From positions 15,327-79,326 of IMG/VR virus record IMGVR_UViG_3300021400_001413: a stretch of DNA of 64,000 bases, one strand, 5' to 3'. Source of the DNA: a virus. Taxonomy: Duplodnaviria > Caudoviricetes. Both the position numbers and the translations under genes were made by a program. The notes under the pieces were generated by a model that was not told the DNA's origin, ran no database searches, and saw nothing but the letters and a program-made list of their open reading frames with translations. Below are positions 391 through 18,116 of the stretch, in pieces; within the stretch, counting starts at the first letter, position 1; every line of letters begins with the position of its first letter.

Positions 391-411
391 AACATCAGGG
401 ACATTTAATAG

Positions 412-1416: not shown

Positions 1417-1543
1417 ATTAAATAACTTTTAATTGTTTATATTATCTAAAAATGAGGAAACTCTAATGACTGCAAGAAATAATATTAGGCAGTAACAGCA
1501 GGGAACTTGTCTCCTCAGAATCAGTTACCTTTAAGAGATTTCC

Positions 1544-2074
1544 TTACTGATTGAATGGGTCTCCCTCAACAGCATTCTCAAATGGGTCTGCATTAGCAGC
1601 CTCCTCAGCTACCTTATCCTGCTCCTTTATAATCTCCTCAGGCATCTCTTCGGAAGCTACCTCTGCATTCTCCTTGTCAATGTCAAAGTCAGAGCCAGGA
1701 TTATCCTCAGTGGTAGGAGGAACAATAGTCTCAGGAATGACAGTCTCAGGATACTTGAGATTATAGACAGTCTTCATAATCTCCTTGCCATTGTCACCAA
1801 TCTGACCAGTGCCTTCCTTGGTAACAACAACCAAATCCTCAGTTGTGTAGCCACCAGTAATCTGCTTTACAGCCTGATTCATAGAATCAATGATAGACTG
1901 ATACCCTGCCTTCTCTGCCTCAAGCTTCTGAAGCTTCTCTTCCAGCATCTTCTGGATTTTCTCCTTGGTTGCAGCAATCTGCTCATCTACCTTAGCCTTC
2001 TTAGTAATGAAGGGTGCTACATTCTTGGCTGTTGACTTAATCACGCTAATTTCAATCTTTGAAAATGTTTTCAT
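1544..2074 (-). CDS. hypothetical protein (coiled coil, acidic tail)
   Basis: 176 aa ORF co-oriented with its neighbours; C-terminus ends DPF like the SSB tail. Confidence 0.6.
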   Translation of the reverse strand: MKTFSKIEISVIKSTAKNVAPFITKKAKVDEQIAATKEKIQKMLEEKLQKLEAEKAGYQSIIDSMNQAVKQITGGYTTEDLVVVTKEGTGQIGDNGKEIMKTVYNLKYPETVIPETIVPPTTEDNPGSDFDIDKENAEVASEEMPEEIIKEQDKVAEEAANADPFENAVEGDPFNQ

Positions 2075-2115
2075 TGTTTAACTTGTTTAAATTGTTAAAA
2101 GATAATATTATTTGT

Positions 2116-2850
2116 TTATTGATAACGCTTGGCAATTTCTGCTACTACTAATCCAAGATCATTAGGAAACTCATCAGGCAACGCATCAAGATATCCTAAA
2201 GAATCCTTTGCAGGAAACTCTCCATCAAACTCCTTAAGGAAAGTCTTACTGGCTTTTTTAGACTGCATATCAAAACTCTGTTTACCAAAGAGAATAATGT
2301 CAAAATTTCCTTCGGGTGTTATGTAGTCATCAACCATCTTACCAGTAGTCTTGAACTTATAAGAGATAGAATCACCGTTTTTATCCTTATACTCTTCATA
2401 ATGAGCACAGCAGATGATATTCTTATTCTCTGGACATCCCTTCATTGCATTGAAGATAAGTCCCATACCATAGCCAATTTGCTTAGGAGTATCCCAGCCG
2501 CCCTTCATAGCATTTGCCATATAGAAATCCTGAGAAAGATAATTGAAATCATCTACAATCAGATTCTTATAAGGATTATTAGGATTCTTAAAAGACTCAA
2601 TGAATTCTGCTACCTTCTTGAATCTATCCAAGCCAGTAATAGTATCTACCTGTACTCTGTTGTACTGGGCAATATACTTAATCTCTGGCTCTGGAGCCAA
2701 TTTAAATTCAGGATTAGGTACTCCTCTTCCAATACACTGAATGACAAAAGTGGTTTTTGGGTCTAACCCTTTAATACCATACTTTTCTCTTCCAGCATAA
2801 GAAGTGGTTTTACCAAAACCTGACTTTGCTAAAACTAAAATCTTTGCCAT
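2116..2850 (-). CDS. AAA ATPase, Sak4-like ssDNA annealing/recombination protein
   Basis: Walker A AKSGFGKTT, Walker B LIVDD, 244 aa, next to SSB. Confidence 0.7.
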   Translation of the reverse strand: MAKILVLAKSGFGKTTSYAGREKYGIKGLDPKTTFVIQCIGRGVPNPEFKLAPEPEIKYIAQYNRVQVDTITGLDRFKKVAEFIESFKNPNNPYKNLIVDDFNYLSQDFYMANAMKGGWDTPKQIGYGMGLIFNAMKGCPENKNIICCAHYEEYKDKNGDSISYKFKTTGKMVDDYITPEGNFDIILFGKQSFDMQSKKASKTFLKEFDGEFPAKDSLGYLDALPDEFPNDLGLVVAEIAKRYQ

Positions 2851-2859
2851 TTGTTTAAC

Positions 2860-4101
2860 TTAATGTTTAAAATTGATGTTTATAAAGTGTTTAATACTAT
2901 TTGCCATAGAGAGAAGTAATACAGGCTTTGTTGTAGTAGAAGGGATCTTAGATGCTGACTTGGCTACCTCCATCTGTTTACAGTTGTCATAGATAACTTT
3001 CATACTAGGTTTGTCATCAGGTTTAGGCAACTCCTTAAAGTCACACACTGCACCATCAAACCAAAGAGGAAGAATACCACCCATCTCACCATTTCTGTGG
3101 ACTATCACCTCTAAGAACCTGATGTGATCCTTTAGAATAGTAATATCATAACCGAGATATTCTGTAATACCAAATCTGAATGGAGAAAACAAACCTAAGA
3201 CTATATCTCCATCGCGGGCTGTGTATTTTGAGTCCCCAAGGCCAACAGCTGAAGGTCTTACTCTTCCAAGTTTAAATGCGTCATTACCCTCAGACTCAAA
3301 TGCCTGCTGCTGAATAACAATAGGAGAGTAGTGATATCTATTTCTAAGATACTTAGCCAAGTACTCTGAGAGTTTATCCATAGACTGCTTAAGAGTCATC
3401 CCTCTTTCAGTATCTATCAGATTAATAGTATCAATAATAATCATACGATACTCATTGGGATTATCCTGTTCATAAGAATCAAATACTTCTATCTCTTGAG
3501 GTTGCCCAAGTTCATCTTTGATAGTTACTTTCTTCTTATTTACAGTGCCATGTTCTTCAGCATATTGCTTACAATACTTATAGATACCAGTTGGATTAGG
3601 GGCTTCATTTGGAAATATGACATGTTCCTCAAAATACTCAAGTATATTCTGAATATCAGTCTGCTTAAGCCTGTCAATAATGCTTTCATCAAGAGCGTCT
3701 GTAGTAGAACGCAATTGTCTGGGACTTATTCTCACAGCCCCCTTTGACATCTTATACAAAAGCCAAGACATAAATCTCTGCATGATTCTCTCCTTAGTCT
3801 CCTCAAGAGGAAAATATATAATCTTAAAATCTACTTGCTCTTTAGCAAACATAGAAAAAATGACTGCCTGGAAGATAAAAGTATAGGATGTAAATTGCGA
3901 TTTTCCTCCTTTACTAAAGCTAGTAATTATATAATAAGTATCTTGTTCAATACCACAGAAATCCTCGGCAAACCTCCTAAACGGTGATGGTATACAGTTT
4001 ACACCACCATCAATGATCCGTTGTCTTTTACCCTCAATTTCTTGCAGAGTCTTTTCTACAAGACTTAAGTTTTGACTCGGAGACTGAAATACTTCATCCA
4101 T
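2860..4101 (-). CDS. dnaB: DnaB-like replicative helicase
   Basis: Walker A FSKGGKSQ, Walker B IIIDTINLI, RecA-like C-terminal motifs; 413 aa. Confidence 0.85.
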   Translation of the reverse strand: MDEVFQSPSQNLSLVEKTLQEIEGKRQRIIDGGVNCIPSPFRRFAEDFCGIEQDTYYIITSFSKGGKSQFTSYTFIFQAVIFSMFAKEQVDFKIIYFPLEETKERIMQRFMSWLLYKMSKGAVRISPRQLRSTTDALDESIIDRLKQTDIQNILEYFEEHVIFPNEAPNPTGIYKYCKQYAEEHGTVNKKKVTIKDELGQPQEIEVFDSYEQDNPNEYRMIIIDTINLIDTERGMTLKQSMDKLSEYLAKYLRNRYHYSPIVIQQQAFESEGNDAFKLGRVRPSAVGLGDSKYTARDGDIVLGLFSPFRFGITEYLGYDITILKDHIRFLEVIVHRNGEMGGILPLWFDGAVCDFKELPKPDDKPSMKVIYDNCKQMEVAKSASKIPSTTTKPVLLLSMANSIKHFININFKH

Positions 4102-4582
4102 TGTCCTTACTTGCTAAGAGTTCTCCAATATGATGTGCCTCACGGATACACAAGCCCTCATACTTCTTCACATCCTTAGCCAAACAACTACCATAGCCTG
4201 TATCTACGACACCAGATTCTCCAAAGAGTATCTTATCATAGTAATCATACAGCTTGTGTGTTAAGTTATAGAAGAACTTGTAGATATCATACTTAGCCCT
4301 TGCCTCTGCCAGCCTCTCTCCAAGAAGCGAGTCATACTTGTCATCAGGTCTGCATTTAGCCACTCCTTCAGAGTATATGAGCAGACAATTATCTACTATG
4401 TCCTCATAAACTTCTATTTTAGTAGTATAACCTATGAAATCAACAACTTCATCAGGAATATGATTCCAGAATGAAGGCAAATCCACAACTCCCTTTAAGA
4501 TGACGGTGGTGGTTTTTCCTACTTTTTTCACAGCTTTACAGGGATTATTCTCTGTTTCCTTAAAACTTACTTTAAAAATCAT
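4094..4582 (-). CDS. hypothetical protein
   Basis: 162 aa; stop overlaps the dnaB start (translational coupling). Confidence 0.6.
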   Translation of the reverse strand: MIFKVSFKETENNPCKAVKKVGKTTTVILKGVVDLPSFWNHIPDEVVDFIGYTTKIEVYEDIVDNCLLIYSEGVAKCRPDDKYDSLLGERLAEARAKYDIYKFFYNLTHKLYDYYDKILFGESGVVDTGYGSCLAKDVKKYEGLCIREAHHIGELLASKDNG

Positions 4583-4595
4583 ACCTTATTATATA

Positions 4596-5222
4596 TTAAC
4601 GTAATTCTATATCCCAATCAGCACTTGTCTTCTTATCAGGAGTATCCTCAATCCAAGCAGCAAGCTGGCTCTGTCTTTCAACTTCACCAACTACTCTTCC
4701 CCTAACTACCTCTTCACCAGTAACCTTGTTCTTCCAGATGAAATATTTAAGAAGCTGCATATAAGTGTAGTTACCATTGAATGATGCAACATAAGCCTTG
4801 GTAGCCTCTATTACCTGTTCATCACTATATTCACCATACTTCATGAAGAACTTCTTAAGTCTGTCTGTAATACAGGAGACACTATCTCTCCATGTATAGG
4901 CATATCCAGGTTTCTTACCAGCAGGGAATATATCCCTAAGTTTCTCTGCAAGCTGTACACACCTCTCCTCTGAAGCTATATTACTGCTACTTGCCATAAT
5001 ACTCTCAGCAAGATGCTCTCCAGTCACATTCAATGAGACATACTCAGGAAACGGTTTTCGGGGATCATACATCTGCTCAAACAACAATAGATTCTGTTGC
5101 CTTGCTTTCTCAAAGGTGTTAGTGGTAATCCTACAGCCAGAGAGGAGAGAGAGAAGATACAGGATAACATCAGCATCCTTACCTTCTTTCTTACATACTT
5201 CTGTGTCTAAAATAATCTTCAT
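4596..5222 (-). CDS. hypothetical protein, possible replication initiator/helicase loader
   Basis: 208 aa, two genes upstream of dnaB; FPAGKKPG..Y.W motif. Function inferred from position only. Confidence 0.35.
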   Translation of the reverse strand: MKIILDTEVCKKEGKDADVILYLLSLLSGCRITTNTFEKARQQNLLLFEQMYDPRKPFPEYVSLNVTGEHLAESIMASSSNIASEERCVQLAEKLRDIFPAGKKPGYAYTWRDSVSCITDRLKKFFMKYGEYSDEQVIEATKAYVASFNGNYTYMQLLKYFIWKNKVTGEEVVRGRVVGEVERQSQLAAWIEDTPDKKTSADWDIELR

Positions 5223-5404
5223 AAGCTATTTAATAAATTTAATCTTACCTTTAGCAGTATATTTATCTCCATTTTTAAGAGTTATCAATACTTTTTCAAC
5301 ACCTCTAGAATCAACATCCTCTATCTCTTCTAAAGAAAAGCAATGTTCTTTATTTGCACTGTCTTCAAATTTGATTCTCATAACTTGATTGTTTTAGATT
5401 GTAT

Positions 5405-5647
5405 CTATTCTCTATAACCATCATATATTTCTATCTCAGGGATGTCAAATCCCCAGTTAGATACAGGGAATACAATAACAGGATGACCTACTTTCTTACT
5501 TAGCATATTCAAATCCTCAAGAGAGTCCAACTCTACAGTGTAAGACTCAGAGAGTCTCCCATCTTTAGGAATTAACTCTTTTTGTGCTCCTGGACACTGG
5601 GGATTCTCTTCCGGATAGCAATTACTTCTGCTTACTACATATTTCAT
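5405..5647 (-). CDS. hypothetical protein
   Basis: 80 aa ORF packed tightly in the operon. Confidence 0.6.
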   Translation of the reverse strand: MKYVVSRSNCYPEENPQCPGAQKELIPKDGRLSESYTVELDSLEDLNMLSKKVGHPVIVFPVSNWGFDIPEIEIYDGYRE

Positions 5648-5654
5648 AATACTT

Positions 5655-6041
5655 CTATCTAATCATTCCTAATTGTCTCATCTCCCTATAATCCATAAAG
5701 AGGGCATTCTTACCTTTATACTCCTCAGGTAAATGCTGATAGAACTCTGAAGCTTTCTTAATGCCTACTAAGTGTCCTGTTCTCCAAGGATTCTTCATAT
5801 CATCAGACTTCTCAGGGTCTATGCCTATAACAAAAAAAGCATCCTGGTCCAGAATCTTCTGACACTCCTTGCAAGGCTTATCAGAGTAACCAATAACCTT
5901 ATCATGCATTTCTTCTACCTTCTTAGCATCTGCCTTAGTTAATCTTGTATTCATGACAATAGCAGAAGCATCTTCATCAACCTGTCCACATATAGGACAT
6001 ACATACTTCACTACTGAAGCAGCAAATTTCTTCTCTTCCAT
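5655..6041 (-). CDS. hypothetical Zn-binding protein
   Basis: Two CxxC motifs (CPIC, CKEC). Confidence 0.6.
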   Translation of the reverse strand: MEEKKFAASVVKYVCPICGQVDEDASAIVMNTRLTKADAKKVEEMHDKVIGYSDKPCKECQKILDQDAFFVIGIDPEKSDDMKNPWRTGHLVGIKKASEFYQHLPEEYKGKNALFMDYREMRQLGMIR

Positions 6042-6052
6042 AATATTTGCTA

Positions 6053-6265
6053 TTAGTTATTCTCTTTTGGCATTGGGGGATAATGAAACTCATTTTCTTT
6101 GCAGGGACTAATAGAGACAGTAACTCTATCTCCTATATTGTATCCACCACAATCTTTTAAAATAAAGTCTCTTATAAGAATAGCACCACCACAATCTGAA
6201 AATATTTTTCGATTTTCTCCATCGGAGTATTCTGTTATTTCTCCAGATATTTTTATTTCTCTCAT
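6053..6265 (-). CDS. hypothetical protein
   Basis: 70 aa, co-oriented, A-rich leader. Confidence 0.5.
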   Translation of the reverse strand: MREIKISGEITEYSDGENRKIFSDCGGAILIRDFILKDCGGYNIGDRVTVSISPCKENEFHYPPMPKENN

Positions 6266-6340
6266 ACTACTTTATATTTATTGTTTATTAATCATTCTAT
6301 CAAGCTTTCTTCTTAAAATTTCTTCTCTTCCATAAGTTGT

Positions 6341-7597
6341 TTATAATGTTTTAGATAAGTTATTATAGTCTATATACTTAACAAACTTAGGGTCTATATT
6401 CTCAAGTGCTCCCTTCAGATAATTCTCATCCTGAGTTCCCTTATAATAGAATATGTAAGTAACAGGGTCTTCAGCACGAAGACTGCGCCCAAATTTTTGA
6501 ATGAAAAGTCTTTCCTTACCATCAAGCTGTACTATAATACCAGTCTGAATATCTGTCAGGTTCATACCTTCAGTAATCATACCAACTGCATAGATACGAT
6601 TTACCTCCTTGTTATTGAATTTATCAATAATCAGCTGATTACTCTTAGCTGGTCTCTTTGAGGATATTGTATTTACAAAGTCAAGAGAATTTGCCTGAGC
6701 TACAGAAGCACAGAAACATACAAACCTGTTATTCCTGGGAAGAGAGTCTATCAGTTTTCTAACTGCTCCAGTCTTGAGCTCACCAAGAAATCTCTTGCGT
6801 TGACTGCCTATATTAACCCACTTGGTTCTCTGGAACTCATTATGAGACCTCTCATATCTCTGTTTCCAGTATTCCATAGTAGAAGTAAGATAGGCGTTCT
6901 TCTGGAACTCAGTACACTGTATGATACAAGGAGTATTATTATAGATATACTTAGCCCTATTCTCCCATTTGACCAAAGGAGCCTTTGGATCATTGCCAAT
7001 CTTAATCTCCTGATGCCTCTTGACATTATCAAGGTGCATTTCTACCACATATACCTTTGGGTCTGGAAGTATGTCTTCCTTGATAGCATCCTTTAAGGTG
7101 ACAGTGGAGGTAGTGAATTTTCCGAAGATACCTGTAATCAAGTCTTCCTTGCCTGAAGATAGGGTAGCAGAGAGGAGATAAATATAAGCATTAGGATACA
7201 AATTCTCTTTTAGCTCCTCTAAAGCTGCCATTCTCTTCTCTGTAAAGCAATGGTGCGCTTCATCAAAGATAACTGCTTCATAGTTATTGTGAACATATTT
7301 TTTTAAGGAAGCATAGCAGCATACATCAGTAGATATGCCAGCTCTGTTTAAATCCCATTTATCAAACTCATCTTCCCAGTTATTAATATGTGCTCTCTCA
7401 GCCACCACAAAAAGAACTTTCATATACAACATATTATTCCTGTCAGGTGGCCATCTTCTTGTTAACTGATAGTTAATAAGGTCAATAACCATCTTGCTCT
7501 TACCACAGCCAGTAGCCCATTTAAGGATAACACGATGTTCCTCCTTAAGAGCCTTAAATTCTCTTTCCTGTAGTTTTTGCTTAAAATCGTTATTCAT
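6341..7597 (-). CDS. superfamily 2 (DEAH-box) helicase
   Basis: WATGCGKS, DEAHH, LSAT, QKFGRSLR. Start moved from 7684 to ATG 7597 (MNNDFK) because a TATCTTTG promoter element lies at 7631-7638. Confidence 0.85.
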   Translation of the reverse strand: MNNDFKQKLQEREFKALKEEHRVILKWATGCGKSKMVIDLINYQLTRRWPPDRNNMLYMKVLFVVAERAHINNWEDEFDKWDLNRAGISTDVCCYASLKKYVHNNYEAVIFDEAHHCFTEKRMAALEELKENLYPNAYIYLLSATLSSGKEDLITGIFGKFTTSTVTLKDAIKEDILPDPKVYVVEMHLDNVKRHQEIKIGNDPKAPLVKWENRAKYIYNNTPCIIQCTEFQKNAYLTSTMEYWKQRYERSHNEFQRTKWVNIGSQRKRFLGELKTGAVRKLIDSLPRNNRFVCFCASVAQANSLDFVNTISSKRPAKSNQLIIDKFNNKEVNRIYAVGMITEGMNLTDIQTGIIVQLDGKERLFIQKFGRSLRAEDPVTYIFYYKGTQDENYLKGALENIDPKFVKYIDYNNLSKTL

Positions 7598-7753
7598 TTT
7601 GAAAATCTCTTTTACTGCCTCTTCTGTTTGCAAAGATATACAAAATATATGCAATATCCAAGTAATTAATGCATAAATATACATTGAATTAACAACTTTA
7701 ACGTATATTTATACAGTAATTACTGGATAGCAACTAAAGGGACAATTATTATA

Positions 7754-7981
7754 TCATTTATTTTTTCCGTAAATTATACCATAGCTCTCCATGTGATTGA
7801 GTGCCCTATATTCACTTGAGAATGAGGTACGAATATTCTTACCAGCAAGGCATAAACATACCTTATATTCTCTCTGGTCATCAGTATGCATCTCTGCTAC
7901 AATATTCTCCTTAGGATTGATATTTGCAACCCTACATACTCTGACAGCCTTTCTAGGCGTTTTGAATAAACCTGTAATCAT
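7754..7981 (-). CDS. hypothetical protein
   Basis: 75 aa; TATTTTTG element upstream at 8034-8041. Confidence 0.5.
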   Translation of the reverse strand: MITGLFKTPRKAVRVCRVANINPKENIVAEMHTDDQREYKVCLCLAGKNIRTSFSSEYRALNHMESYGIIYGKNK

Positions 7982-8118
7982 TGTTGTAAGTATTAAATGT
8001 TAATGAATATTTTCTATATCAGCTCTACAGTTGCAAAAATATCCCCTCCTCCCATATAGCTATACTATACAGAAAGAGGGGCGCGAATCTTACAACAATC
8101 AAGCCAAACAAATTTGGT

Positions 8119-8457
8119 TTATACTATTCCTGTATCATCATCACTGAATATGTCATCAATTCCCATCTTAGAAGTAATGGCACTTACAAGAGTCTCAATG
8201 TCCTTACGTGTTCTGTTTATGTCACTAAGATGCTGCCTTTTTAACCTGTATTCTGCAATAGCAGAATCACAGGAGGGTATGATGACATTATCCATAATGA
8301 CACTTGCATCCTCATCAGGATTATGAAACTTATGCAAGGCATAATCAGCATATACGACATAGAAATCATCAAGTGGGTTAGAGTAGTGCTCTACCACTAC
8401 TCCTAGAATCTTTTCTCCTTCAGAGGAGAACGCAATAATATCATGTAGATCTGCCAT
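8119..8457 (-). CDS. hypothetical protein
   Basis: 112 aa ORF in the small-gene cluster. Confidence 0.55.
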   Translation of the reverse strand: MADLHDIIAFSSEGEKILGVVVEHYSNPLDDFYVVYADYALHKFHNPDEDASVIMDNVIIPSCDSAIAEYRLKRQHLSDINRTRKDIETLVSAITSKMGIDDIFSDDDTGIV

Positions 8458-8548
8458 ATTAGTAAATTATTAGTTAAACATAATACCTTCCTTTTATTGA
8501 AGGTCTGTCTCCCTGTTTGAGCTTGATTACTATGACAGATACATAGGA

Positions 8549-8740
8549 TTACTTGATAGAAAGTCTTTTCTTCTTATCCTTAATCTTATAATTGACCTCT
8601 GCTCCTATCTTCATGGTAGCAGTACCATTGGGAATCTTAAGATGGTAATAAGTATCATCCACACTGAGGACTATCGCATCCTCAAAACCGGTATAACCCT
8701 CAATAGGGGTAAGATAATCGCCTTTTTTAAATTTTGCCAT
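8549..8740 (-). CDS. hypothetical protein (SH3-like MAKFKKGD start)
   Basis: 63 aa; the KFKKGD start is common in small phage beta-barrel proteins. Confidence 0.5.
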   Translation of the reverse strand: MAKFKKGDYLTPIEGYTGFEDAIVLSVDDTYYHLKIPNGTATMKIGAEVNYKIKDKKKRLSIK

Positions 8741-8869
8741 ACTATAATAAATCTACAAGTCCTTTACTACCATCACCTACAACCATAGCAAGGAATGCTA
8801 CAGCCATTATTATTCCTATAATCAGACAAAGTAAGTCTTCTTCTATCATGTCTTTAATCTTCCTCATAG

Positions 8870-9079
8870 TCAGTCTGTTATATTATCCCACATGGTTATC
8901 TTTTCATTAATACTATCTGCATCGAGGGTAGCTTCAGAGAGAGTAAGAACATGTGCAGCCTCTTTACTAGCTATATCATCATTGAATGCCTGACATAACC
9001 TGGTAGCGGATATGACTGTACCACAATATTTCTCTACAGGACAGCCATTACAGTTGTGATACTTATCTGAATAATTCAT
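8870..9079 (-). CDS. hypothetical Cys-rich protein
   Basis: 69 aa, CNGCPVEKYC motif. Confidence 0.5.
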   Translation of the reverse strand: MNYSDKYHNCNGCPVEKYCGTVISATRLCQAFNDDIASKEAAHVLTLSEATLDADSINEKITMWDNITD

Positions 9080-9082
9080 AGG

Positions 9083-9397
9083 CTACAATCTTTCTGCTAT
9101 TTTATATAATTCGTCAAAACTCATATCTCTCAAAGGCATCCAATACTCATGTCTCTCAGTGTGAACATCATCTACTTCTACTACTTGAATATCGGCATAG
9201 AGAGTATTATCATTTTCATTAAACTGAAGACAAGCAACCTCTTCATACATAAGATAAGAACCTTCAGTAGAAGGAAGATGTATCTTAATATGGGGAGAAA
9301 AGACAATCTCTCCTCCCTTAGCCTTAACAGTATCTGCAATCTCAGCTACAAAACTCTCTTTGAGTCTGTTATAAAGATGAAATAATTTCTGTTTCAT
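9083..9397 (-). CDS. hypothetical protein
   Basis: 104 aa, tightly packed. Confidence 0.55.
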   Translation of the reverse strand: MKQKLFHLYNRLKESFVAEIADTVKAKGGEIVFSPHIKIHLPSTEGSYLMYEEVACLQFNENDNTLYADIQVVEVDDVHTERHEYWMPLRDMSFDELYKIAERL

Positions 9398-9409
9398 AAT
9401 CTTGTATTA

Positions 9410-9628
9410 TTATAGTTTATTCTGTACATGCCATATACCATCATAATCTTCACAAAGCCATTGTCCTTTAAGGGCATAGATATTAGAACCTATAGCTACC
9501 ATATAAGGATAAAGCCTTACAAAAAGATTACCATTAAATGTCTTCTCTACACAATATACGCAAGGTAAGCGAAAGATATCCTCTATACACTTACCTTCTA
9601 TGTGTATGCATTGCCTATAGTTGCTCAT
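9410..9628 (-). CDS. hypothetical protein
   Basis: 72 aa, tightly packed. Confidence 0.5.
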   Translation of the reverse strand: MSNYRQCIHIEGKCIEDIFRLPCVYCVEKTFNGNLFVRLYPYMVAIGSNIYALKGQWLCEDYDGIWHVQNKL

Positions 9629-9737
9629 ACTTAATCGTAATTATTATCATTTCAAACTTCCAGTCATAACATCTACATAGAGGTTTTTGCTGTGGTTTTC
9701 CTTATAAATAAGCAGACTCCACATGACTGGAAGAGAA

Positions 9738-9890
9738 TCATATAGTTAGAGCCAATGAAAAGAACCCTACTCCTATAAGAAGAAATACAAAAGTGATACC
9801 AGTGGCTCTCCAGCTGTCCTTAGTTAGAGAACCTATAGCAATACTGATAGCACAGAATAGCATTGCTATAATGACAAGAATATTATTCAT
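9738..9890 (-). CDS. small two-helix membrane protein (50 aa)
   Basis: Manual translation MNNILVIIAMLFCAISIAIGSLTKDSWRATGITFVFLLIGVGFFSLALTI; overlaps the upstream gene stop by 8 nt; below the ORF-track cutoff. Confidence 0.5.
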   Translation of the reverse strand: MNNILVIIAMLFCAISIAIGSLTKDSWRATGITFVFLLIGVGFFSLALTI

Positions 9891-10269
9891 ACCTATCATA
9901 TATTCCTTGAATTTCTTCTTCTAATACCTGCTCCCAAAGAGGATAATCATCGACAATCTCCTCTACAAGCTCCCTGTTATAGATAAACTTAGTAGCATCA
10001 ATATGGTGCCAGTCAGTATCATCCCAATAAGGATACTTCTCAAGAATCCCATCAACTGTTTTCTCCTCAAACACACATTCAGAGTATTCTATATGTCTGA
10101 GGTAATCACAGAATGTAGCATAAAGCTCAGGATTATTCTCAAGCTCCTTAGCATCCACACTCCATCTCTTGAAGATGTAATCATAACATTCTTCCTTAGT
10201 ACCTACAAAAAGAAGTTCATTCTCTATGCAAGGTACACTCCAATCTGTTTCATAATATCTGAGTATCAT
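9883..10269 (-). CDS. hypothetical acidic protein
   Basis: 128 aa. Confidence 0.55.
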   Translation of the reverse strand: MILRYYETDWSVPCIENELLFVGTKEECYDYIFKRWSVDAKELENNPELYATFCDYLRHIEYSECVFEEKTVDGILEKYPYWDDTDWHHIDATKFIYNRELVEEIVDDYPLWEQVLEEEIQGIYDRYE

Positions 10270-10446
10270 AAGCTGAATTGTTTTGTTGTAAGATTAATAG
10301 TAGTCTCAATGAGAATCGAACTCATATCTAAGGTTTAGGAAACCTTTGTTCTATCCATTGAACTATAAGACCAAATGCCTGCCACTGTAGGCTTAACATT
10401 TAAAGAAAAATTTGAAACGAATATGTCGCTCTCTCAGCGAGTAAAG

Positions 10447-11117
10447 TGATTCTGCTGGGGCTCGAACCCAGGACCTACTGCTTAGTTTGCTACTCTATGT
10501 TACCATAGCCAAACAAAGATAGTATCCTTTCTTCCTCCTCCTAAGTTTCCCCAGGCGATACTAAGTTATTTCATAGGGCTAACCCTTTGTTTGTTGTAGT
10601 CTGGAATACATTATTACTATATTGAAATTCTTGCAAGATTAGATTTACTTATATAGTCCTTTCTTTTATTTTTCCGTATCTTGTCCTACAGCTTAACGTA
10701 TTCACCATAGGGGAGCGCAGTTTATTTCACCTGAAAATACTTAAACTAACTTCATAAGTCTAAAATTTCAACTTAGGCATTCTTATCAGATACATCTGAA
10801 TAGAATGTGAGGGTATTCAATATATTTCCCTCATATCTCCTATATACTCTCTACACATTTATGAAGGAAGAAACTCATATTCATTTCTTTGTAGATTGAC
10901 CTTCAATTTAGCACGGTATTATCCTTACACATTATTGGTTAGTGTTGTGGTTCCTCCGCCATACTTAAGCCACACATTATAAATTGCAGGTTTGAAGGGA
11001 AGGACTTTCACCGTTTTAGGGAGATTCTACTATGGGATTTCTCGCCATAGCACTCCTGTTTATTTATTCACAGAAACATTTGAAGGCAGTTGCTCTATCC
11101 AGCTGAGCTACAGAACC
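10447..11117 (-). tRNA. tRNA-Arg(UCU), intron-split (exon 1 11117-11083, exon 2 10485-10447)
   Basis: Joined exons read GGTTCTGTAGCTCAGCTGGATAGAGCAACTGCCTT|CTAAGCAGTAGGTCCTGGGTTCGAGCCCCAGCAGAATCA. This is a full cloverleaf with anticodon stem ACTGC/GCAGT, loop CU-UCU-AA, TTCGA T-loop and the A20 Arg identity base; CCA is not encoded. Confidence 0.9.
10486..11082 (-). mobile_element. group I-like intron (597 nt, no homing endonuclease ORF)
   Basis: Core pairings in canonical order on the minus strand: P3 AUCUCC(C)U 11025-11018 / AGGAGAU 10841-10835; P4 ACGGUG 11014-11009 / UACCGU 10918-10913; P5 GUCCUU / AAGGAU; P7 GAGAGUA 10851-10845 / UAUUCC 10608-10603; GNRA hairpin CUAUG-GUAA-CAUAG 10508-10495. 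Confidence 0.8.
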
Positions 11118-11140
11118 AAAAAATCCCTCCGCTGAGGGAT
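11118..11140 (-). terminator. terminator-like hairpin directly 5' of the tRNA
   Basis: ATCCCTC-AGCG-GAGGGAT followed by TTTTT, then tRNA G1. Confidence 0.5.
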
Positions 11141-11247
11141 GAAATTTAAAACTATAAATATTATAACCTACTATCACAGTAGAATTAATAAAAATGAAAA
11201 ATACCTATAAACCTAAAACAATTATGCAAAAAATGTATTTTCATGTG

Positions 11248-11277
11248 CAAAAGTAAGATATTAATTCTCAATGCAAA
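11248..11277 (-). promoter_or_regulatory. Bacteroidota housekeeping-sigma promoter for the tRNA
   Basis: TTTG (11277-11274), 18 nt spacer, TACTTTTG (11255-11248). Confidence 0.6.
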
Positions 11278-11470
11278 TATAGTTTAGATAAATCCTTAGA
11301 TTTTATTATTTCTACACTATATCTTTGTCTATATCCCAATTACCCCCACCAAGACAGTCATGCCAATTTTCATCTTTATTGATAAGGTCTTTGTGGTAGA
11401 TAGGATAGCCAAAGCGAAGTTTTATATTTCCACTTTTATCCAATATTAATATATATTTCTTTTGTCTCAT
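11268..11470 (-). pseudogene. possible frameshifted small gene
   Basis: MRQKKYILILDKSGNI in one frame; LRFGYPIYHKDLINKDENWHDCLGGGNWDID in another frame after about 11420. Confidence 0.35.
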
Positions 11471-11475
11471 AGCTC

Positions 11476-11937
11476 CTACTCTTTAAATAGTTTAGCAACT
11501 CTATTATTCATCTCTTTATAGGTCATAGATTTTGGCCAATCACCAAATAACATGCCCATGCGGAAATGTTCTTTTTTACCAAAATGAGGAGGATTGAGTT
11601 TTATCTCTTCTCCGGATAATCCCTGAAGTCTGCTAAGTACTAATAGTATGATTGCTCTATTATAAGTGCATTCATAAATATCTGAATACCTATTTACCTC
11701 ATTCCAGAAAGATGCAAAAGAACACAAGTAACCACTGGAGAATTTTTTATCTTGCGCTTCATAGATTCTCTCAAGAATATTAAGCATGAAATAAGCTAAT
11801 TCGTCGTCTCTTTTAGGTGTCCATCCATATATTTTTGATAGAAGGTAACCTAAATCTTCATACAGATCTATCCTTTCATACCATCCTTTTGCGTAAAGGA
11901 CAATATCATTATAAATAAAATCTACAATCTGTTTCAT
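11476..11937 (-). CDS. hypothetical protein
   Basis: 153 aa with an AGGAG-containing, A-rich leader. Confidence 0.6.
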   Translation of the reverse strand: MKQIVDFIYNDIVLYAKGWYERIDLYEDLGYLLSKIYGWTPKRDDELAYFMLNILERIYEAQDKKFSSGYLCSFASFWNEVNRYSDIYECTYNRAIILLVLSRLQGLSGEEIKLNPPHFGKKEHFRMGMLFGDWPKSMTYKEMNNRVAKLFKE

Positions 11938-12161
11938 AATTATGTCTCCTATGTTTTAATTGTTGTAAGTATTTAGTCCCACAATGACTTCGATGTCAAC
12001 CTACTTCACAGTAGAAAGTCTACCTATTTGATACTATCTCATTAGACTGTTGCGGGTATAGCAAATCCTATAAAAAGACAAAAAGTGCTATAGAGTTTGA
12101 TTACAAGGGATTTTGTGATGCATTTGAAAGTTGTTGCAAAAGGGAGAGGGTGTATTGTGTA

Positions 12162-12189
12162 CCAATTACACCCAATTACACCAATTAGA
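12162..12189 (+). repeat. tandem repeat CCAATTAC/GA x3
   Basis: Copies at 12162, 12172 and 12181. Confidence 0.7.
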
Positions 12190-12569
12190 AACACTTTAAA
12201 CACCTGCACTAATTATCTGTTAATCAATGATTTATCACTCATTAAGAAGGTGATGAAGGTTTTCTCTTTCTATTATATAATATGTACACGTACATTATAT
12301 ATTTAAATACAAACCATAAACACACTACCACATTCCCAAATACCATTAGTGATTATAAGGGAACCATTACATCTTTCCTATTCAAAACTTTATTTAATTT
12401 CAGAGTGCTATATACGCATTATACAACCTATTTTTTCTTCAAACTTTGCCTTAAATAGAAGTATAGAAGATAGATTATCATCTATCTTCATTCTCATCTC
12501 TTCTAAAGAAAGAAATATATAAAGAAAGAAAGGTTTCTCTTCTCCTTATAATATTGTAAAGAATTAAGA

Positions 12570-12631
12570 ACTATGCATCCTATTTGAACTATGTGTTCTA
12601 CTTAAACTATGTGTACTATGTGTACTATGTG
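12570..12631 (+). repeat. ACTATG(TGT) repeats on a 9-nt register
   Basis: Copies at 12570, 12588, 12606, 12615 and 12624. Confidence 0.7.
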
Positions 12632-12696
12632 CAATAGACAAGAGAAAACCAAATCCCCTCAGCTCCACTGGGGAGCCAAGGGGTTGAAGACCACTG

Positions 12697-13074
12697 TTAG
12701 AAGCTGGCGGCAGTCTTGGCAAGGTCTTCCTGGTTAGAGAGGCCAACACAAGGAACCCAAGCCTTGGTTTCTGGGTTGAAGCTCTCAAAGAAGCAGAGGT
12801 TGTGCTTCTTCTCAACCAACTCAGAAGGTGACATACCCTGGAGCTTCTTGCCAAGGTAATACCTGCCAACTTCAGCATCACCAGCATTGAAGAGGAAAAG
12901 CACATGCTTCTTCTCATTCTCAACTGTGTTCAGCTTGCAGGCACCTCTGGCATTGGTCTCATCACCAAAGGATACACTCTGTGTCAGGTAGCTGATAGAG
13001 CCATTGTCACTTGTGATTTTGGTCACGTTGTTTCTGTTCTCGAAGCTGTTAAGAGTCTCGCGTATCATAAGCAT
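12697..13074 (-). CDS. hypothetical protein, first gene of the leftward block
   Basis: 125 aa; most plausible of three overlapping frames by orientation. Confidence 0.55.
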   Translation of the reverse strand: MLMIRETLNSFENRNNVTKITSDNGSISYLTQSVSFGDETNARGACKLNTVENEKKHVLFLFNAGDAEVGRYYLGKKLQGMSPSELVEKKHNLCFFESFNPETKAWVPCVGLSNQEDLAKTAASF

Positions 13075-13229
13075 TTGTGGAGAAGGAATACGACTACCTT
13101 TGGGAAGTTAACTAATCAAAGTCTCACCCTGAGACACCTTCCCTAAAGGCAGAGGGGGTAGAACCCACTCCTCCGAAGGCAGGTAGGGGTATGGGGTGGC
13201 TATTCTCCCCTTGCATCACTATGAAACAA

Positions 13230-13339
13230 AAAAATTCTGGGGAAAAATTTTTGGAAAAATTCCTCTCTTGTATACCCACAAAACTTTTTGAAAATCAGAA
13301 AAATTTCCAAAAAATTTTAGAAAAAAATTAGGAAAAATT
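13230..13339 (+). repeat. phased A-tract array (AAAAATT x7)
   Basis: Starts at 13230, 13243, 13255, 13299, 13310, 13323 and 13333. Confidence 0.75.
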
Positions 13340-13614
13340 CCCCAATAATTTCTCTTGTTTTCCCTAAATCTTTTCTTCAAACAACTGGCAGAAAAAAGAA
13401 TAATTTTATATTGGCAAATTACCAGCAAATAGAAACTTATTGATTATCAACAGCTTACTTTCTTTTTGGATTTTCTGCGCAAGTAAAAACAGCACTCGCT
13501 TCTCTATAACCCCTGTCTACTTAACCACTTAATAAAGATTAAACTTTCCCCATAAATAGTATATCGTTAAAGAATTATTATTATCTTTGCAGAAACAATC
13601 TAAAGATAACTATT

Positions 13615-13767
13615 ATGGAAGAGAAAAAAGATCCTTGGTGGCTTAAGCCATTAGTATTATTATTTGTATTATTTGTGCTTTTTGGTATGGTTTCAATGTG
13701 TAATCATAGTCTTAAAGAAAGTAGTGGAGTAGGTATAGAATCTACCATAAAAAGTCATGGAGATTAA
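13615..13767 (+). CDS. small single-pass membrane protein (50 aa)
   Basis: MEEKKDPWWLKPLVLLFVLFVLFGMVSMC...; TATCTTTG promoter element at 13582-13589. Confidence 0.55.
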   Translation: MEEKKDPWWLKPLVLLFVLFVLFGMVSMCNHSLKESSGVGIESTIKSHGD

Positions 13768-13849
13768 AAAGATATTAAAATAAATGTTAATAACTTCATT
13801 TTATATCTATAAAGTCACCTTTATATTATAAATAAGGTGTATTTTTGCA

Positions 13850-14320
13850 CCAGCATCCAGTGAGATGTTGTAGCAAGTACTTATGCCATGCTGGTTAAAA
13901 TTGCTGCTTTATTGAGAGAAGTGTTTCATAGTTGAAGTCTTGATTCTACCAACTTGATTGGAGGTAAAGGACCACAAGAAGGGTACAGGTAAAGAATCCT
14001 AGGGTGTAAAAGAGACAGAGAGCCTATAGTTACTGTTCATCTGGAGACCCGCAAGTCAATGAAGGATGTTCTAGGAGGCAAGACGGGGATGGATGCTAGG
14101 TTACACAGCAAGCGAAAATCTTGCAACCCAGGGCTTAAAGAAGGTTTTGCCCAAGGTCTCTTAATGAAGAATTAACAATTTTAAATTAGTAAATAAGGAA
14201 TGAGGAATGGCATGTCTTGTTTTGAAATATTGCCTTTACCGCCTGGGGTTGAAGACCCAGAAAAACATAGGAGGACACCTGCCAAATCCGTCTAAATCTC
14301 TTGGGTGTCCTCCGTTTTTT
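13850..14320 (+). ncRNA. candidate large structured ncRNA
   Basis: TATTTTTG at 13840-13847; closing hairpin GGAGGACACC 14270-14279 / GGTGTCCTCC 14304-14313 plus T6; several long-range complementarities; no credible ORF. Confidence 0.6.
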
Positions 14321-14403
14321 ATTTTTAGAGATATAATTGTTTTATTTACTAAGAACTGTTATTTGGATTCTTTTGTTTATATTTGCAGCAAAATATATAG
14401 ATT

Positions 14404-15906
14404 ATGAAAGTTTGGAATGAATTATCAATGGCAGAGAAAGCTGATGTGATGAAGCTTGCTATAGAAGGAGGTGTCTATGATTTAGATGCCATCAGGTCTG
14501 GGTATAATGAGTATGCCAAAGGTGGAAAGATACATATTGATCCAAGTAAGAAGGGAACCTTTACAGCAGCTGCCTCTAAACATGGAATGGGAGTACAGCA
14601 GTTTGCCTCTAAAGTATTAGCACATCCAGAGAACTATTCTCCTGCTATGAGAAAGAAAGCCAACTTTGCTAGAAATGCAGCCAAATGGAAGCATGAAGAT
14701 GGAGGAAGTTTGTATGCACATGGAGGAGAATTAGGAAATTATTATGATGGTTGGGGAGATGCTTTGAATTTCTTGAAGAAAGGATGGAATAAAGTTAAAG
14801 ATGCTGTACAAGCATCTGCTGTTTATGAGAATCCTGCTGTTATGATGGCAGCGGGTCAAAAAGTTAACCAACAGGGAAAAGTGGAATATAATCATATAAA
14901 TGATAATGAAGTTAAACAGCTAAGAAATAACCTTGCCACTTTAGGAGAAGGAGCTTTGAGTGCTGTTACAGCTACAGGAGATGTAGAAGCTGCATATAAT
15001 ATGTTAAGACATCCTGTTCAGACTGCAAAGGCAATAAAAGCCAGTTTAAAGCCCGTTTATAATAAAATTGCTAACAAGAGTAAAGCAAAAGTTCTTGAAG
15101 AAGAAAGTTTTATTCCAGACTATATTAAAAGAAAAGTAGGTAGTAACATCACTGAAGAATCCGTAGTAAAGGATATTAATAAAGCTAAGGACTATAAAGA
15201 ATCAGATGGTTATAGAAAGTTAGTTGAATCTTTCATTGCTGAAGCTGGGGATAATAGCATTCCTGTTGATGCCTTTTACAGGAGCAGAAAATCTGTTCCA
15301 GAGATAATATTGGAAAAAAGACCTGACGGACATCTAGGTGGATACAACTATCACGACAACAGATTGTCTGTTGATCCAGCACAAGCCACAGAAGACGTTC
15401 CATTTCACGAGGGCTTACATTGGCAAAGAATAGGAAAGCCTGAGGTAGAAAGAGGAGAAGCTTATGAAGCCTGGGCCAAGGCATTTGATGAGAATGCTCC
15501 TGAAGAAATCCAAGATGCATTATTTAATAAGTATTATAATTCAGAACTTGGAAAGCAGGCAATGAGACAGGAAAAAGCCATTAAAGATTTGTACGATAGA
15601 AAAGTTGAAGATGTTTTGTATTCAGATGTTTCTAAAAACAGTGAAATGCGAAAACATGAAGAATTACTTGCACATACATGGGGAGTTGGAGAATCTTTAG
15701 GATTAGAAGCTTTTCAGGATTATCCAGGAATGGCAAAGGCTTTAGATACAATAGAAAAAGCCAGGAAAAAAGATTCATTTTTGTGGGATGTAAAGGCAGG
15801 AACACAAGATGAAGTTCAAAATTTCTGGAAATTATTAACTGGTAATTATGCACCGTCTGTAATGATTGGAACATCTGCATTAGGATTAGAAGAACTAAAA
15901 AAATAA
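14404..15906 (+). CDS. putative virion cargo protein: AxGG-bounded N-terminal module plus zincin metallopeptidase domain
   Basis: YAKGG, HEDGG and YAHGG flank an IHIDPSKKGTFTA...ANFARNAAKW module recalled from crAss-like proteins; HEGLH with a downstream E (KHEELLA); TATATTTG promoter at 14378-14385. Confidence 0.6.
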   Translation: MKVWNELSMAEKADVMKLAIEGGVYDLDAIRSGYNEYAKGGKIHIDPSKKGTFTAAASKHGMGVQQFASKVLAHPENYSPAMRKKANFARNAAKWKHEDGGSLYAHGGELGNYYDGWGDALNFLKKGWNKVKDAVQASAVYENPAVMMAAGQKVNQQGKVEYNHINDNEVKQLRNNLATLGEGALSAVTATGDVEAAYNMLRHPVQTAKAIKASLKPVYNKIANKSKAKVLEEESFIPDYIKRKVGSNITEESVVKDINKAKDYKESDGYRKLVESFIAEAGDNSIPVDAFYRSRKSVPEIILEKRPDGHLGGYNYHDNRLSVDPAQATEDVPFHEGLHWQRIGKPEVERGEAYEAWAKAFDENAPEEIQDALFNKYYNSELGKQAMRQEKAIKDLYDRKVEDVLYSDVSKNSEMRKHEELLAHTWGVGESLGLEAFQDYPGMAKALDTIEKARKKDSFLWDVKAGTQDEVQNFWKLLTGNYAPSVMIGTSALGLEELKK

Positions 15907-15910
15907 AAAC

Positions 15911-16126
15911 ATGGATAACTGTTTTTCCGGAGACAAGAGGGGTAGAAATGCTTCAGAAAACCATGAAGATAAAATAGCTGCCATAGTAGAGGACAGATAT
16001 AAAAAACTCTGTATTAAATCGGAGAGCAAAAATACCTCTATTGAAACACAGGAAAGAATAGAAAAATATAACGAATACCTCAGGGATTGCATAGAAGAGA
16101 GGGTAAGGAATAATGCAGAAGAATAA
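15911..16126 (+). CDS. hypothetical charged helical protein
   Basis: 71 aa, 4 nt after the preceding stop. Confidence 0.45.
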   Translation: MDNCFSGDKRGRNASENHEDKIAAIVEDRYKKLCIKSESKNTSIETQERIEKYNEYLRDCIEERVRNNAEE

Positions 16127-16228
16127 TCTCTATTCATTACCCCTCTTAAGCTGCCCTTTAAATAAGCACTTTCTTAAAATCGGCAATATTATTAAAGTTT
16201 TACTGCCGATTCTGTAATTATAAACTGC

Positions 16229-17383
16229 TTATTCAAGATTTTGGGCTTTTTCTTTAATAGCATCCACCACAGTCTCATCAAGAAGCTTGGCATATATTTG
16301 CTCTGTTATCTTCAAAGATGAATGTCCACATATCTTAGTGACTATCTTCATATCTATTCCTTCGTTAAGGAGGATAGTTGCTCCAGTATGTCTAGCCCAG
16401 TGTGTAGTTAATCCAACATCTAACCCTGCTGCTTGTGCTACATTCTTCAAGTAGAGATTATATTTCACATTACTTATTATAGGTAATACCCCTCTGTATT
16501 TAGCAAGAATATCAAGAGCAGGCTGGAGTAGGGGAATAGTAGTACTTTTCTTTGTCTTCTTCTGATTGAACTTATAGACTTCTGTACCATTAATGATTAC
16601 TATATTGTTAGGATTGAATCTTGCAAGATCTGAGTATCTCAGGCAAGTATAAGTCTGGAATACAAATAAATCTCTGACTCTTTTAAGACTATCTGTAGGC
16701 ATCTTAGCAATTCTTAATTGATGGAATTCATTTAAAGTCAGACATTTATCCAAACTATTATTGTCCTTTCCTTTATCTATATTTACCCACTTATATGGAT
16801 TTCTTTGCAGTAGCCCGTCATCAATTGCATCTAAGATAAAACTATTAAGAAAGCGGTGGTAGTTCTGCCATTTGCTGTAGTTCTTCATACCTTGGTGTAT
16901 AAGGTATTTGTCATAAGCTATGATATTACTGTCATTGATATCATTGAATGTCTTTATCTTTCCCCAGGAAGTGAATTTCCTGAGAAACCTTTCATATCTC
17001 TGCTGGGTGTCTTTCTCTTTACCGTACTCTCTTACAGCAGCCCTCTGGTTACAAAAATCAATGAATCCGATTTTATCAAGCTCTTTCCTGTTGAGTCTAT
17101 CCTGAATAGTGAATATATCAATATTGTCTTCTTGGATCATATCTATTAGCACCTGTCTTACATTAGATACAAGCTTATCAAGAACCTGACTTATCTGAAG
17201 GATATTATCACAGTTGGTTATCTTGCCATCTTTCCATTGATTAGGATATAACCATATTCCAGTACTGAGGTATTTCTGTTTTCTGTTGTGAGTTACTCTG
17301 ATTTCTACTACAGCTTTGGTCTTTGCATCTGCTTTCTTATACCTATTATATATAAGGTGTATTTGTGGAAATTTGTTATTCAT
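16229..17383 (-). CDS. int: tyrosine integrase, Bacteroidota type with arm-binding N-terminal domain
   Basis: N-terminal VEIRVTHNRKQKYLSTGI arm-binding module; catalytic set intact: CLRYSD (R), KTKK (K), HWARH (HxxR), GHSS (H), QIYAK (Y). Confidence 0.92.
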   Translation of the reverse strand: MNNKFPQIHLIYNRYKKADAKTKAVVEIRVTHNRKQKYLSTGIWLYPNQWKDGKITNCDNILQISQVLDKLVSNVRQVLIDMIQEDNIDIFTIQDRLNRKELDKIGFIDFCNQRAAVREYGKEKDTQQRYERFLRKFTSWGKIKTFNDINDSNIIAYDKYLIHQGMKNYSKWQNYHRFLNSFILDAIDDGLLQRNPYKWVNIDKGKDNNSLDKCLTLNEFHQLRIAKMPTDSLKRVRDLFVFQTYTCLRYSDLARFNPNNIVIINGTEVYKFNQKKTKKSTTIPLLQPALDILAKYRGVLPIISNVKYNLYLKNVAQAAGLDVGLTTHWARHTGATILLNEGIDMKIVTKICGHSSLKITEQIYAKLLDETVVDAIKEKAQNLE

Positions 17384-17491
17384 TGTTAAATTTTTAATTT
17401 GTACGTGAAATGGAGATAAAATGTATTATAGCAGGGGAGAGGAGTGTGAACTCTATAATACATTTATAATACATTAATAGGAGAAAAATAA

Positions 17492-17516
17492 AAAGGGAGA
17501 CCTGAGGACTCCCTTT
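17492..17516 (-). terminator. intrinsic terminator downstream of the att core
   Basis: AAAGGGAG/CTCCCTTT stem followed on the minus strand by TATTTTT. Confidence 0.65.
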
Positions 17517-17573
17517 ATTTACTTGAAAAGCAGAGGGTAAGGGGTTGGGACCCTATAGCCCTATTCTTTTTCC

Positions 17574-17598
17574 TTGCGGAAGGTGAGGGATTCAAACC
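17574..17598 (-). other. attP core: 3' end of a tRNA-Ser-like gene
   Basis: Minus strand GGTTTGAATCCCTCACCTTCCGCAA gives a T-loop-like TTTGAAT, 3' T-stem CCCTC, acceptor strand ACCTTCC and discriminator G (Ser-like); no 5' tRNA half is present. Confidence 0.75.
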
Positions 17599-17725
17599 TT
17601 GTAACCTATTTATACTATATATGTACCAGAGAATCACATATTTATCATTATAATACTATGGAGCATTAATCATAAGCTATAATACTTTTATAATACATTT
17701 GTTCATTTCGGGATTATTTCTGCCG

Positions 17726-17733: not shown

Positions 17734-17879
17734 AGGTTTTAAATTTGAATTTTGAGTTAAACCTGTGAAAAAGAATGTTAACGGATTCATTATAATGAGT
17801 AAATAATTGATTAGCAAACTAGTTAATAGTATATTTGCAAACAGTTACTCATAGTGTTATACTTAAAACCAAAATTATA

Positions 17880-18116
17880 ATGGGCAGAGATTCTTATGAC
17901 GATGAGCCAGTTTATTACTGCAAAAGATGTCTATCACTAAAGGTACGTCAAATGCCAATGGTTGAAGACCAATGTTACTGTGAAGATTGTGGCACAGTAG
18001 ATATAGGAGTTGCAAGTTTTGAAGAATGGGATGATCTGTATGTAGAGAGGTATGGACATCATTTCTGTGAAAAAGAAGAGAAGAAAGAAGAAAGAAAGTG
18101 GCCTTACTGGTGCTGA
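17880..18116 (+). CDS. small zinc-finger protein
   Basis: YYCKRCL...YCEDCGT; start moved to ATG 17880, after the TATATTTG promoter at 17830-17837. Confidence 0.7.
   Translation: MGRDSYDDEPVYYCKRCLSLKVRQMPMVEDQCYCEDCGTVDIGVASFEEWDDLYVERYGHHFCEKEEKKEERKWPYWC

Follow-up and report, generated by a model that had tools for sequence, protein, structure and literature searches.

The 64,000-nucleotide stretch analyzed here (the window), bases 15327-79326 of the IMG/VR virus record IMGVR_UViG_3300021400_001413 (79,326 bp, linear, estimated completeness 78%), carries a tyrosine integrase gene (int) and, upstream of it, a phage attachment site (attP) that matches the 3' end of a tRNA-Ser(CGA) gene of Prevotellaceae. 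We consider it very probable that the phage behind the window is a temperate crAss-like phage, related to Steigviridae and infecting rumen Prevotellaceae, and that the window shows it in its attP form, as excised or virion DNA. The decisive evidence comes from a close relative, whose major capsid protein (MCP) is 97% identical to that of the window and for which both a prophage bounded by left and right attachment sites (attL and attR) and the empty bacterial site (attB) were found. This relative integrates at the host tRNA-Ser(CGA) gene, and from it we infer integration of the window's own phage. True lysogeny in a crAss-like lineage, as claimed in the original prediction made from the letters of the window, was therefore seen in the relative, but not in the window's own species. 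It also seems likely that the entire Steigviridae-related lineage of crAss-like phages in rumen Prevotellaceae is temperate, with a horizontally exchanged int-attP cassette common to unrelated Prevotella phages and to a second crAss-like lineage, a core that co-varies with the acceptor stem of tRNA-Ser(CGA), and host populations polymorphic for occupied and empty sites.

The crAss-like identity of the phage, proposed from the start, is borne out by its proteins. Pfam models of Crass_capsid (2.4e-128), CrAss_Ring_3_4 (two genes), crAss_AuxCP, crAss_MUZ (1.6e-292), crAss_CARG1, and crAss_CARGO2 matched proteins of the window, and PHROGs matched its terminase, portal, and major head protein; the window thus holds the capsid, portal, large terminase subunit (TerL), ring, muzzle, and cargo proteins expected of Crassvirales. 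The deposited phages nearest by TerL belong to Steigviridae (Kahnovirus oralis cr85_1, 57% identity; IAS virus, 56%), several deposited crAss phages have an MCP ~48% identical to that of the window, and no near-identical DNA was found in the deposited-phage collection. Cultured Steigviridae (PhiCrAss001, crAssBcn phages, IAS virus, cr85_1) share the virion and packaging gene set of the window. According to its bioRxiv abstract, PhiCrAss001 has no obvious lysogeny genes, whereas the window carries int and attP and has a close relative that is integrated.

The integrated relative and empty host sites

In a set of integrase homologs (n = 2,159), a protein 78% identical to the window integrase (P0008) was encoded on contigs that reach 114,785 bp and also encode a TerL 88% identical to that of the window (P0123). 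One of them, the rumen metagenome contig ERZ27298211:k141_335387 (110,563 bp), contains a crAss-like prophage with attL and attR on the same contig. Its attL end (bases 1-17,506) comprises carB (carbamoyl-phosphate synthase large subunit), Impact_N, a complete tRNA-Ser(CGA) gene (6071-6159), a terminator, three copies of GTATTATA, and int. The first 6 kb show no similarity to the window, and the genes beyond int, including a tRNA-Arg(CCT) and a helicase, are syntenic with the window from 17391 down to 6356 (55-91% protein identity). The attR end (bases 99,670-110,563) comprises the portal, TerL, lysis and small genes, a gene encoding a 78-amino-acid zinc-ribbon protein, arm repeats, and a 46-nt partial tRNA, beyond which lie host genes encoding a 146-amino-acid protein, an esterase, and AzlC. 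Prevotellaceae genes are present on both sides of the prophage, and its host flank is 91% identical at the DNA level to a Prevotellaceae metagenome-assembled genome (MAG; L109). The 46-nt repeat at 6115-6160 and ~107,472-107,517 (computed) encloses ~101.3 kb, which is the size implied by the completeness estimate of the window's record. Besides the MCP, the prophage shares with the window the portal (92% identity), TerL (88%), and integrase (78%), and Pfam identified Crass_capsid, ring, auxiliary-capsid, and tail-hub-A (crAss_THA) proteins in it.

About six further contigs of 110-115 kb have this layout, among them those of 111,730, 112,713, and 114,785 bp. When contigs of 50-200 kb were searched, the gene on the attR side was found on seven, all of the lysogen type (7/7), and no contig with the attP form of the integrated strain was detected. 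The attL junction is also present on short independent contigs (L133, L134); the sequences of L132 and L134, which are of the attL type, begin within the core or immediately ahead of it. Empty attB sites were found in at least four contigs (L144, L145, L148, and L155), which come from at least two further studies and encode identical Impact_N and 146-amino-acid proteins with only the tRNA between them. The left flank of attB matches that of attL at 121/121 positions and its right flank that of attR at 151/152, whereas the cross comparisons are unrelated (27/121 and 45/152). Prophage copies in host genomes, which the original prediction had suggested looking for, thus exist for the close relative.

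Other occupants of this locus were also observed. Contigs with identical Impact_N differ after the same tRNA-Ser(CGA), with a fragment of another Arm-DNA-bind_5 integrase in L154 (3515-3820) and unrelated genes in L151 (8586-8800) and L157; the site appears to be a hotspot common to several elements or strains. In one host-family genome (L164, G323:C17:4786-4808), a tRNA-Ser(CGA) copy without the 5' acceptor strand retains ~80 nt and was probably left behind as an att site by a different element whose core was long.

Integrase and attachment site

The integrase of the window (384 amino acids; 16229-17383, minus strand; PHROG 1 integrase) consists of an N-terminal arm-DNA-binding domain (Arm-DNA-bind_5, PF17293; 37.5 bits, cutoff 22.6), a SAM-like core-binding domain (Phage_int_SAM_5, PF13102; 33.8 bits, cutoff 22.3), and a catalytic domain (Phage_integrase, PF00589; 5.5e-17, 62.5 bits, cutoff 27.1). 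Its catalytic residues were placed by alignment to solved recombinases (XerC-like 4a8e and HP1 integrase 1aih) and 12 homologs. The set is complete (R249, K276, H328-x-x-R331, H354, and Y364), in agreement with the earlier description of an intact enzyme. K276, H328, R331, H354, and Y364 are invariant in 13/13 aligned integrases, while R249 is kept in the window and its close relatives and replaced by serine or alanine in homologs with at most 67% identity, including the integrase of a second crAss-like lineage (L127). We take this replacement of the first catalytic arginine in distant homologs to be the substitution of IntDOT-type Bacteroidetes integrases. IntDOT itself has serine at this position and tolerates heterology in the overlap; the window integrase, with its canonical R249, lacks the IntDOT-like serine. 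The ratio of nonsynonymous to synonymous substitution rates (dN/dS) of int is 0.20, 0.07, and 0.07 in comparisons with relatives whose integrases are 95%, 90%, and 84% identical, which argues that the gene is under purifying selection in the window's own phage group.

Among deposited phage records, the integrases closest to that of the window, at 36% identity across 97% of its length, are encoded by LoVEphage, Bacteroides phage BI-TP1, and Phocaeicola phage PV4-TP1. These are temperate phages of gut Bacteroidota, but they are ~71 kb long and not crAss-like. Integrases of the IntDOT/NBU type combine the same three domains and likewise act in Bacteroidota hosts, and IntN2 of NBU2 integrates at the 3' end of a Bacteroides tRNA-Ser gene, the type of target found here. 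These integrases are carried by mobilizable or conjugative elements, however, whereas the window integrase is phage-borne and has R249.

The common core of attP (17574-17598, minus strand) was delimited by identity to Prevotellaceae tRNA-Ser(CGA) and comprises the T-loop, the 3' strand of the T-stem, the 3' acceptor strand, the discriminator G, and CAA. The sequence GGTTTGAATCCCTCACCTTCCGCA lies at 17575-17598 (minus strand), ~190 nt upstream of int. A tRNA-Ser 3' end with discriminator G, present once, had been noticed from the letters alone, and it is indeed single-copy in both the window and the 79-kb record even with 2-3 mismatches allowed (0 expected by chance). Three repeats (TATAATAC / GTATTATA) form the int-proximal arm (17423-17472), at 17423-17430, 17454-17461, and 17465-17472, of which the first, the copy nearest int, is inverted; three more form the int-distal arm (17649-17696), at 17649-17656, 17678-17685, and 17689-17696. 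Exact TATAATAC occurs 11 times in 64 kb, compared with ~3.5 expected, and 6/11 copies cluster at 17423-17696, in the three-plus-three arrangement around the core that was first described. The two arms are further linked by a 23-nt direct repeat (22/23 identical).

Arm geometry is conserved among relatives. Offsets of the repeats from the core, in tRNA orientation, are -103, -92, -63, +121, +132, and +163 in both the window and L158; L159 keeps the distal ones (-63, -92, -103), and its int-side offsets are each smaller by 1 nt. Similar positions were found in L135 and in attL (L131) and attR (L139/L142) of the prophage, and none in attB. Integrases with at most 74% identity have different arm sequences beside them, which fits recognition of the arm repeats by a co-diverging arm-binding domain.

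Between core and int lies a predicted intrinsic terminator (17481-17516, minus strand), ~60 nt downstream of the tRNA 3' end, with a 12-bp hairpin (17492-17516) followed by a T-run. The hairpin folds with -14.9 kcal/mol (z = -3.8), although a generic terminator scan did not list it, and its placement agrees with the proposal that it would follow the restored host tRNA. A non-homologous terminator occupies the equivalent place in attP or attL of three relatives (L131, L135, L127).

A core identical to attB, flanked by three plus three exact repeats, is the layout of lambda-type attP sites, and the assignment to this type stands. In the lambda-type phages HP1, P4, and P22, which use tRNA 3' ends, the core is likewise identical to the tRNA, arm repeats lie on both sides, int adjoins attP, and the tRNA is restored; the HP1 integrase is also among the best solved-structure matches to that of the window, and both have a separate arm-binding N-terminal domain. 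In contrast to these systems, the arm-binding domain of the window integrase is of a Bacteroidetes type (PF17293), its bearer is a ~100-kb crAss-like podovirus, and no equivalents of Xis or of integration host factor (IHF) sites were identified in the window.

From sequence we infer which protein binds which site and where strands are exchanged. The integrase would bind the TATAATAC arm repeats through its N-terminal arm-binding domain and the core through its SAM-like and catalytic domains, and it would recombine the core of 23-25 nt with the stretch at the 3' end of the host tRNA-Ser(CGA) gene to which this core is identical. At attL, the 5' part of the host tRNA and the phage-borne 3' end would form an intact tRNA, followed by the phage terminator, which would take the place of the host tRNA terminator after integration, and then by int. 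At attR, a partial tRNA would remain at the far end of the ~100-kb prophage, with the zinc-ribbon gene and the genes for packaging and structure next to it.

Target tRNA, host and spread of the cassette

The 3' part of the core was compared with 185,579 species genomes, in which it matched at least 120 loci. Among the matches listed, ~57 loci, nearly all labeled Prevotella or Prevotellaceae and mostly from ruminants, are tRNA-Ser(CGA) genes ending in ...GGGGGTTTGAATCCCTCACCTTCCGC. The exact match between core and tRNA extends over 23 nt, from G52 of the T-stem through the discriminator G and the next C, or over 25 nt where the host sequence continues with AA; a matching host tRNA, on which the original prediction depended, is therefore at hand. 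The match takes in an unusual T-loop, TTTGAAT, with T for the near-universal C56. Since this T-loop is shared, whereas the listed matches from other phyla have TTCGAAT, the core appears specific to Prevotellaceae and points specifically to a host of this family.

Variation in the core also follows that of the host. In a fragment with an MCP 89% identical to that of the window (G406/L122) and in L159 (integrase 90% identical), the acceptor strand of the core reads ACTCTCC instead of ACCTTCC, and tRNA-Ser(CGA) genes with the matching 5' strand, GGAGAGT, were found in other species of the host family (5/401 genomes, 4 with a complete tRNA). The core thus seems to track the host acceptor stem in a compensatory manner, as it should if the 3' half of the functional tRNA is supplied by the phage. 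A longer match was found in a rumen MAG contig, JAEEGK010000877.1 (L130), in which AAGGAAAAAG downstream of an empty tRNA-Ser(CGA) site stretches the identity with attP to 33 nt (to window position 17566). This contig may represent a natural host of the window phage, although the extension possibly arose by chance. It was also considered as a lysogen of the window phage, which was rejected because this single metagenome match of the host-left sequence plus a 10-nt phage-arm pattern is an empty site.

At five listed Prevotella MAG loci, an integrase 48-54% identical to that of the window is encoded directly downstream of the tRNA. These integrases were examined as candidate crAss prophages and rejected, as the genomes have no crAss capsid gene, and they belong to other elements; the integrase family therefore uses this site in other elements too. 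IMG/VR contains six related integrases. The cassette is present in the G406 fragment (36.6 kb), whose integrase is 74% identical to that of the window. A more distant crAss-like genome (G410/L127, IMG/VR 3300031992_000055; 93.7 kb, 91% complete), with a TerL 45% and an MCP 48% identical to those of the window, carries a 60%-identical integrase and a 46-nt tRNA-Ser(CGA) core (variable arm to 3' end) ~20 kb from TerL, which suggests independent acquisition or relocation of the cassette. Two complete non-crAss phages of 51-53 kb encode 50-52%-identical integrases with the same core. Judging from these comparisons, the cassette is horizontally exchanged among Prevotella phages and is present in at least two crAss-like lineages.

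Competing readings, earlier reports and neighboring genes

Several observations weigh against a temperate life of the window's phage. Its own species (relatives with integrases 95%, 90%, and 84% identical) was found in attP form only. Junction-specific patterns revealed no lysogen of this species in the genome, viral, and metagenome collections, and the pattern combining core and int-side arm had no match in genome contigs or viral contigs. The crAss capsid gene is absent from 401 sampled host-family genomes, as it is from the five Prevotella MAGs with int homologs, and the lysogen contigs are metagenome assemblies, several of them from one study. The core of the window measures 23-25 nt compared with 46 nt in the integrated relative, and in L158 only ~20 nt (GAATCC...CGCAA) are identical, which suggests that strand exchange takes place in the T-stem/acceptor part. 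In addition, Pfam and PHROG gave no match to a repressor, antirepressor, or excisionase in ~20 small open reading frames (ORFs) near attP.

The attP-form contigs, the core shortened relative to that of the integrated relative and further eroded in L158, and the small ORFs without a recognizable repressor could also mean that int-attP works in relatives and is a decaying or unused relic in the window phage, which would then lead a lytic or episomal life. We regard this as improbable, since the integrase is full-length, has a complete catalytic set, and evolves with dN/dS of 0.07-0.20 among window-like genomes, the six arm repeats are exact, with the same offsets in L158 and deviations of at most 1 nt in L159, and the core still follows acceptor-stem variants of the host. 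A core of 20-25 nt also exceeds what related Bacteroidetes integrases, those of the NBU elements, need.

Considerably less probable is that int and att form a separate small integrative element or satellite inserted in the phage genome, with a second att elsewhere, an outcome that the original prediction had named among its refutations. The cassette is horizontally mobile, given the homologous integrases with the same core in the unrelated 51-53 kb phages and beside tRNA-Ser in the crAss-free Prevotella MAGs. However, the core is single-copy in the 79-kb record (two mismatches allowed), all close relatives have the cassette at this place, with the replication module on one side and the packaging module on the other, and the direct repeats of the lysogen bound the entire ~101-kb crAss genome. 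That the lysogen contigs are assembly chimeras joined through the shared tRNA-derived repeat, as their metagenomic origin (several from one study series, TONG22-1) and the breakage of some exactly at the core (L132) might imply, can practically be dismissed: both junctions lie on one contig, the layout is found in about seven contigs from different samples under two assembly naming schemes, the repeat of 46 nt is shorter than the final k-mer of 141 (inferred from the "k141" contig names), attL is also present on the short contigs L133 and L134, and the flanks match the empty sites almost base for base.

The window phage is one of the rare integrase-bearing crAss-like genomes, which have already been counted but apparently not dissected, and it is not the first of its kind. 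The MGV catalogue (Nayfach 2021) contains an integrase and host flank in 48/9,395 putative crAss-like genomes (0.51%; PMC8241571), 12 crAss-like phages were found among 1,282 prophages of the pig gut (PMC12454387), and epsilon crAss-like phages encode repressor and antirepressor genes, with two incomplete prophage-like regions in Parabacteroides (PMC11054128). The prototype crAssphage has been proposed to be a non-integrating phage-plasmid in a paper which also states that integrative lysogeny is very infrequent in Crassvirales (PMC10983915), cultured crAss-like phages are described as being without lysogeny modules (PMC9980608; PhiCrAss001 abstract), and one review (PMC8776839) names a temperate crAss-like phage with reference to Fujimoto 2020. 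Persistence without known integration, the premise of the original prediction, therefore holds for cultured isolates, but not for the catalogues, in which rare genomes with integrase and host flanks are recorded (PMC8241571, PMC12454387).

The genomes called lysogenic in these catalogue studies (PMC8241571, PMC12454387, PMC11054128) have an integrase and host flanks, as here. The text available from those studies reports numbers of genomes or incomplete prophages, but no att sites, target gene, or empty-site controls; by contrast, the present analysis resolves attP, attB, attL, and attR and places the host in rumen Prevotellaceae. In the literature searched, no crAss-like phage was found whose att sites, tRNA target, or empty-site controls had been described, which does not prove that no such description exists. 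The persistence of crAss-like phages at high abundance without host collapse is a long-standing question, and now that the target gene and all four att forms are resolved, together with the probable host clade and naturally occurring occupied and empty alleles, integrative lysogeny in Crassvirales becomes directly testable. If the lineage is temperate, Crassvirales would gain its first attP/attB/attL/attR system resolved in full, and with it a route to Prevotella lysogens or integrating vectors. The tracking of the host tRNA acceptor stem by the core may also serve as a rule for host assignment, and the integrase/att pair is a candidate tool for the genetics of Prevotella, a genus that is difficult to manipulate.

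The int-att region coincides with the strand switch point between the replication and packaging modules. Leftward replication genes, including helicases (2860-4101 and 6341-7684), lie on one side, and the rightward packaging and structural module begins at ~17880 with the first gene beyond attP, which encodes the zinc-ribbon protein of 78 amino acids (17880-18116, plus strand; the ORF as listed starts at 17835). A homologous gene adjoins attR in the prophage (L139/L168). An Atlas feature search linked the protein to viral clusters of a "putative transcription factor, zinc-finger fold" with a high score, and Pfam and PHROG gave no match; as a lead only, it is a candidate regulator. From its position at the point of divergent transcription, an ORF of 125 amino acids (12697-13074, minus strand), which is 91% identical in the prophage and has no Pfam, PHROG, or Atlas match, is one candidate lysogeny regulator. 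The position of the phage tRNA-Arg(CCT) gene (10300-10372, minus strand) is kept in relatives and in the prophage (L131 14095-14167; L135 10126-10200). TerL of the window has 774 amino acids, while many TerL homologs of the same phage group have 1,107-1,154. These longer homologs (P0125, P0129, P0172, P0176, P0188, P0198, P0206, P0211, and others) contain domains of the homing-endonuclease/intein type (PF05204, PF14528, PF14890), which indicates putative intein or endonuclease insertions in the terminase of relatives that the window TerL does not share.

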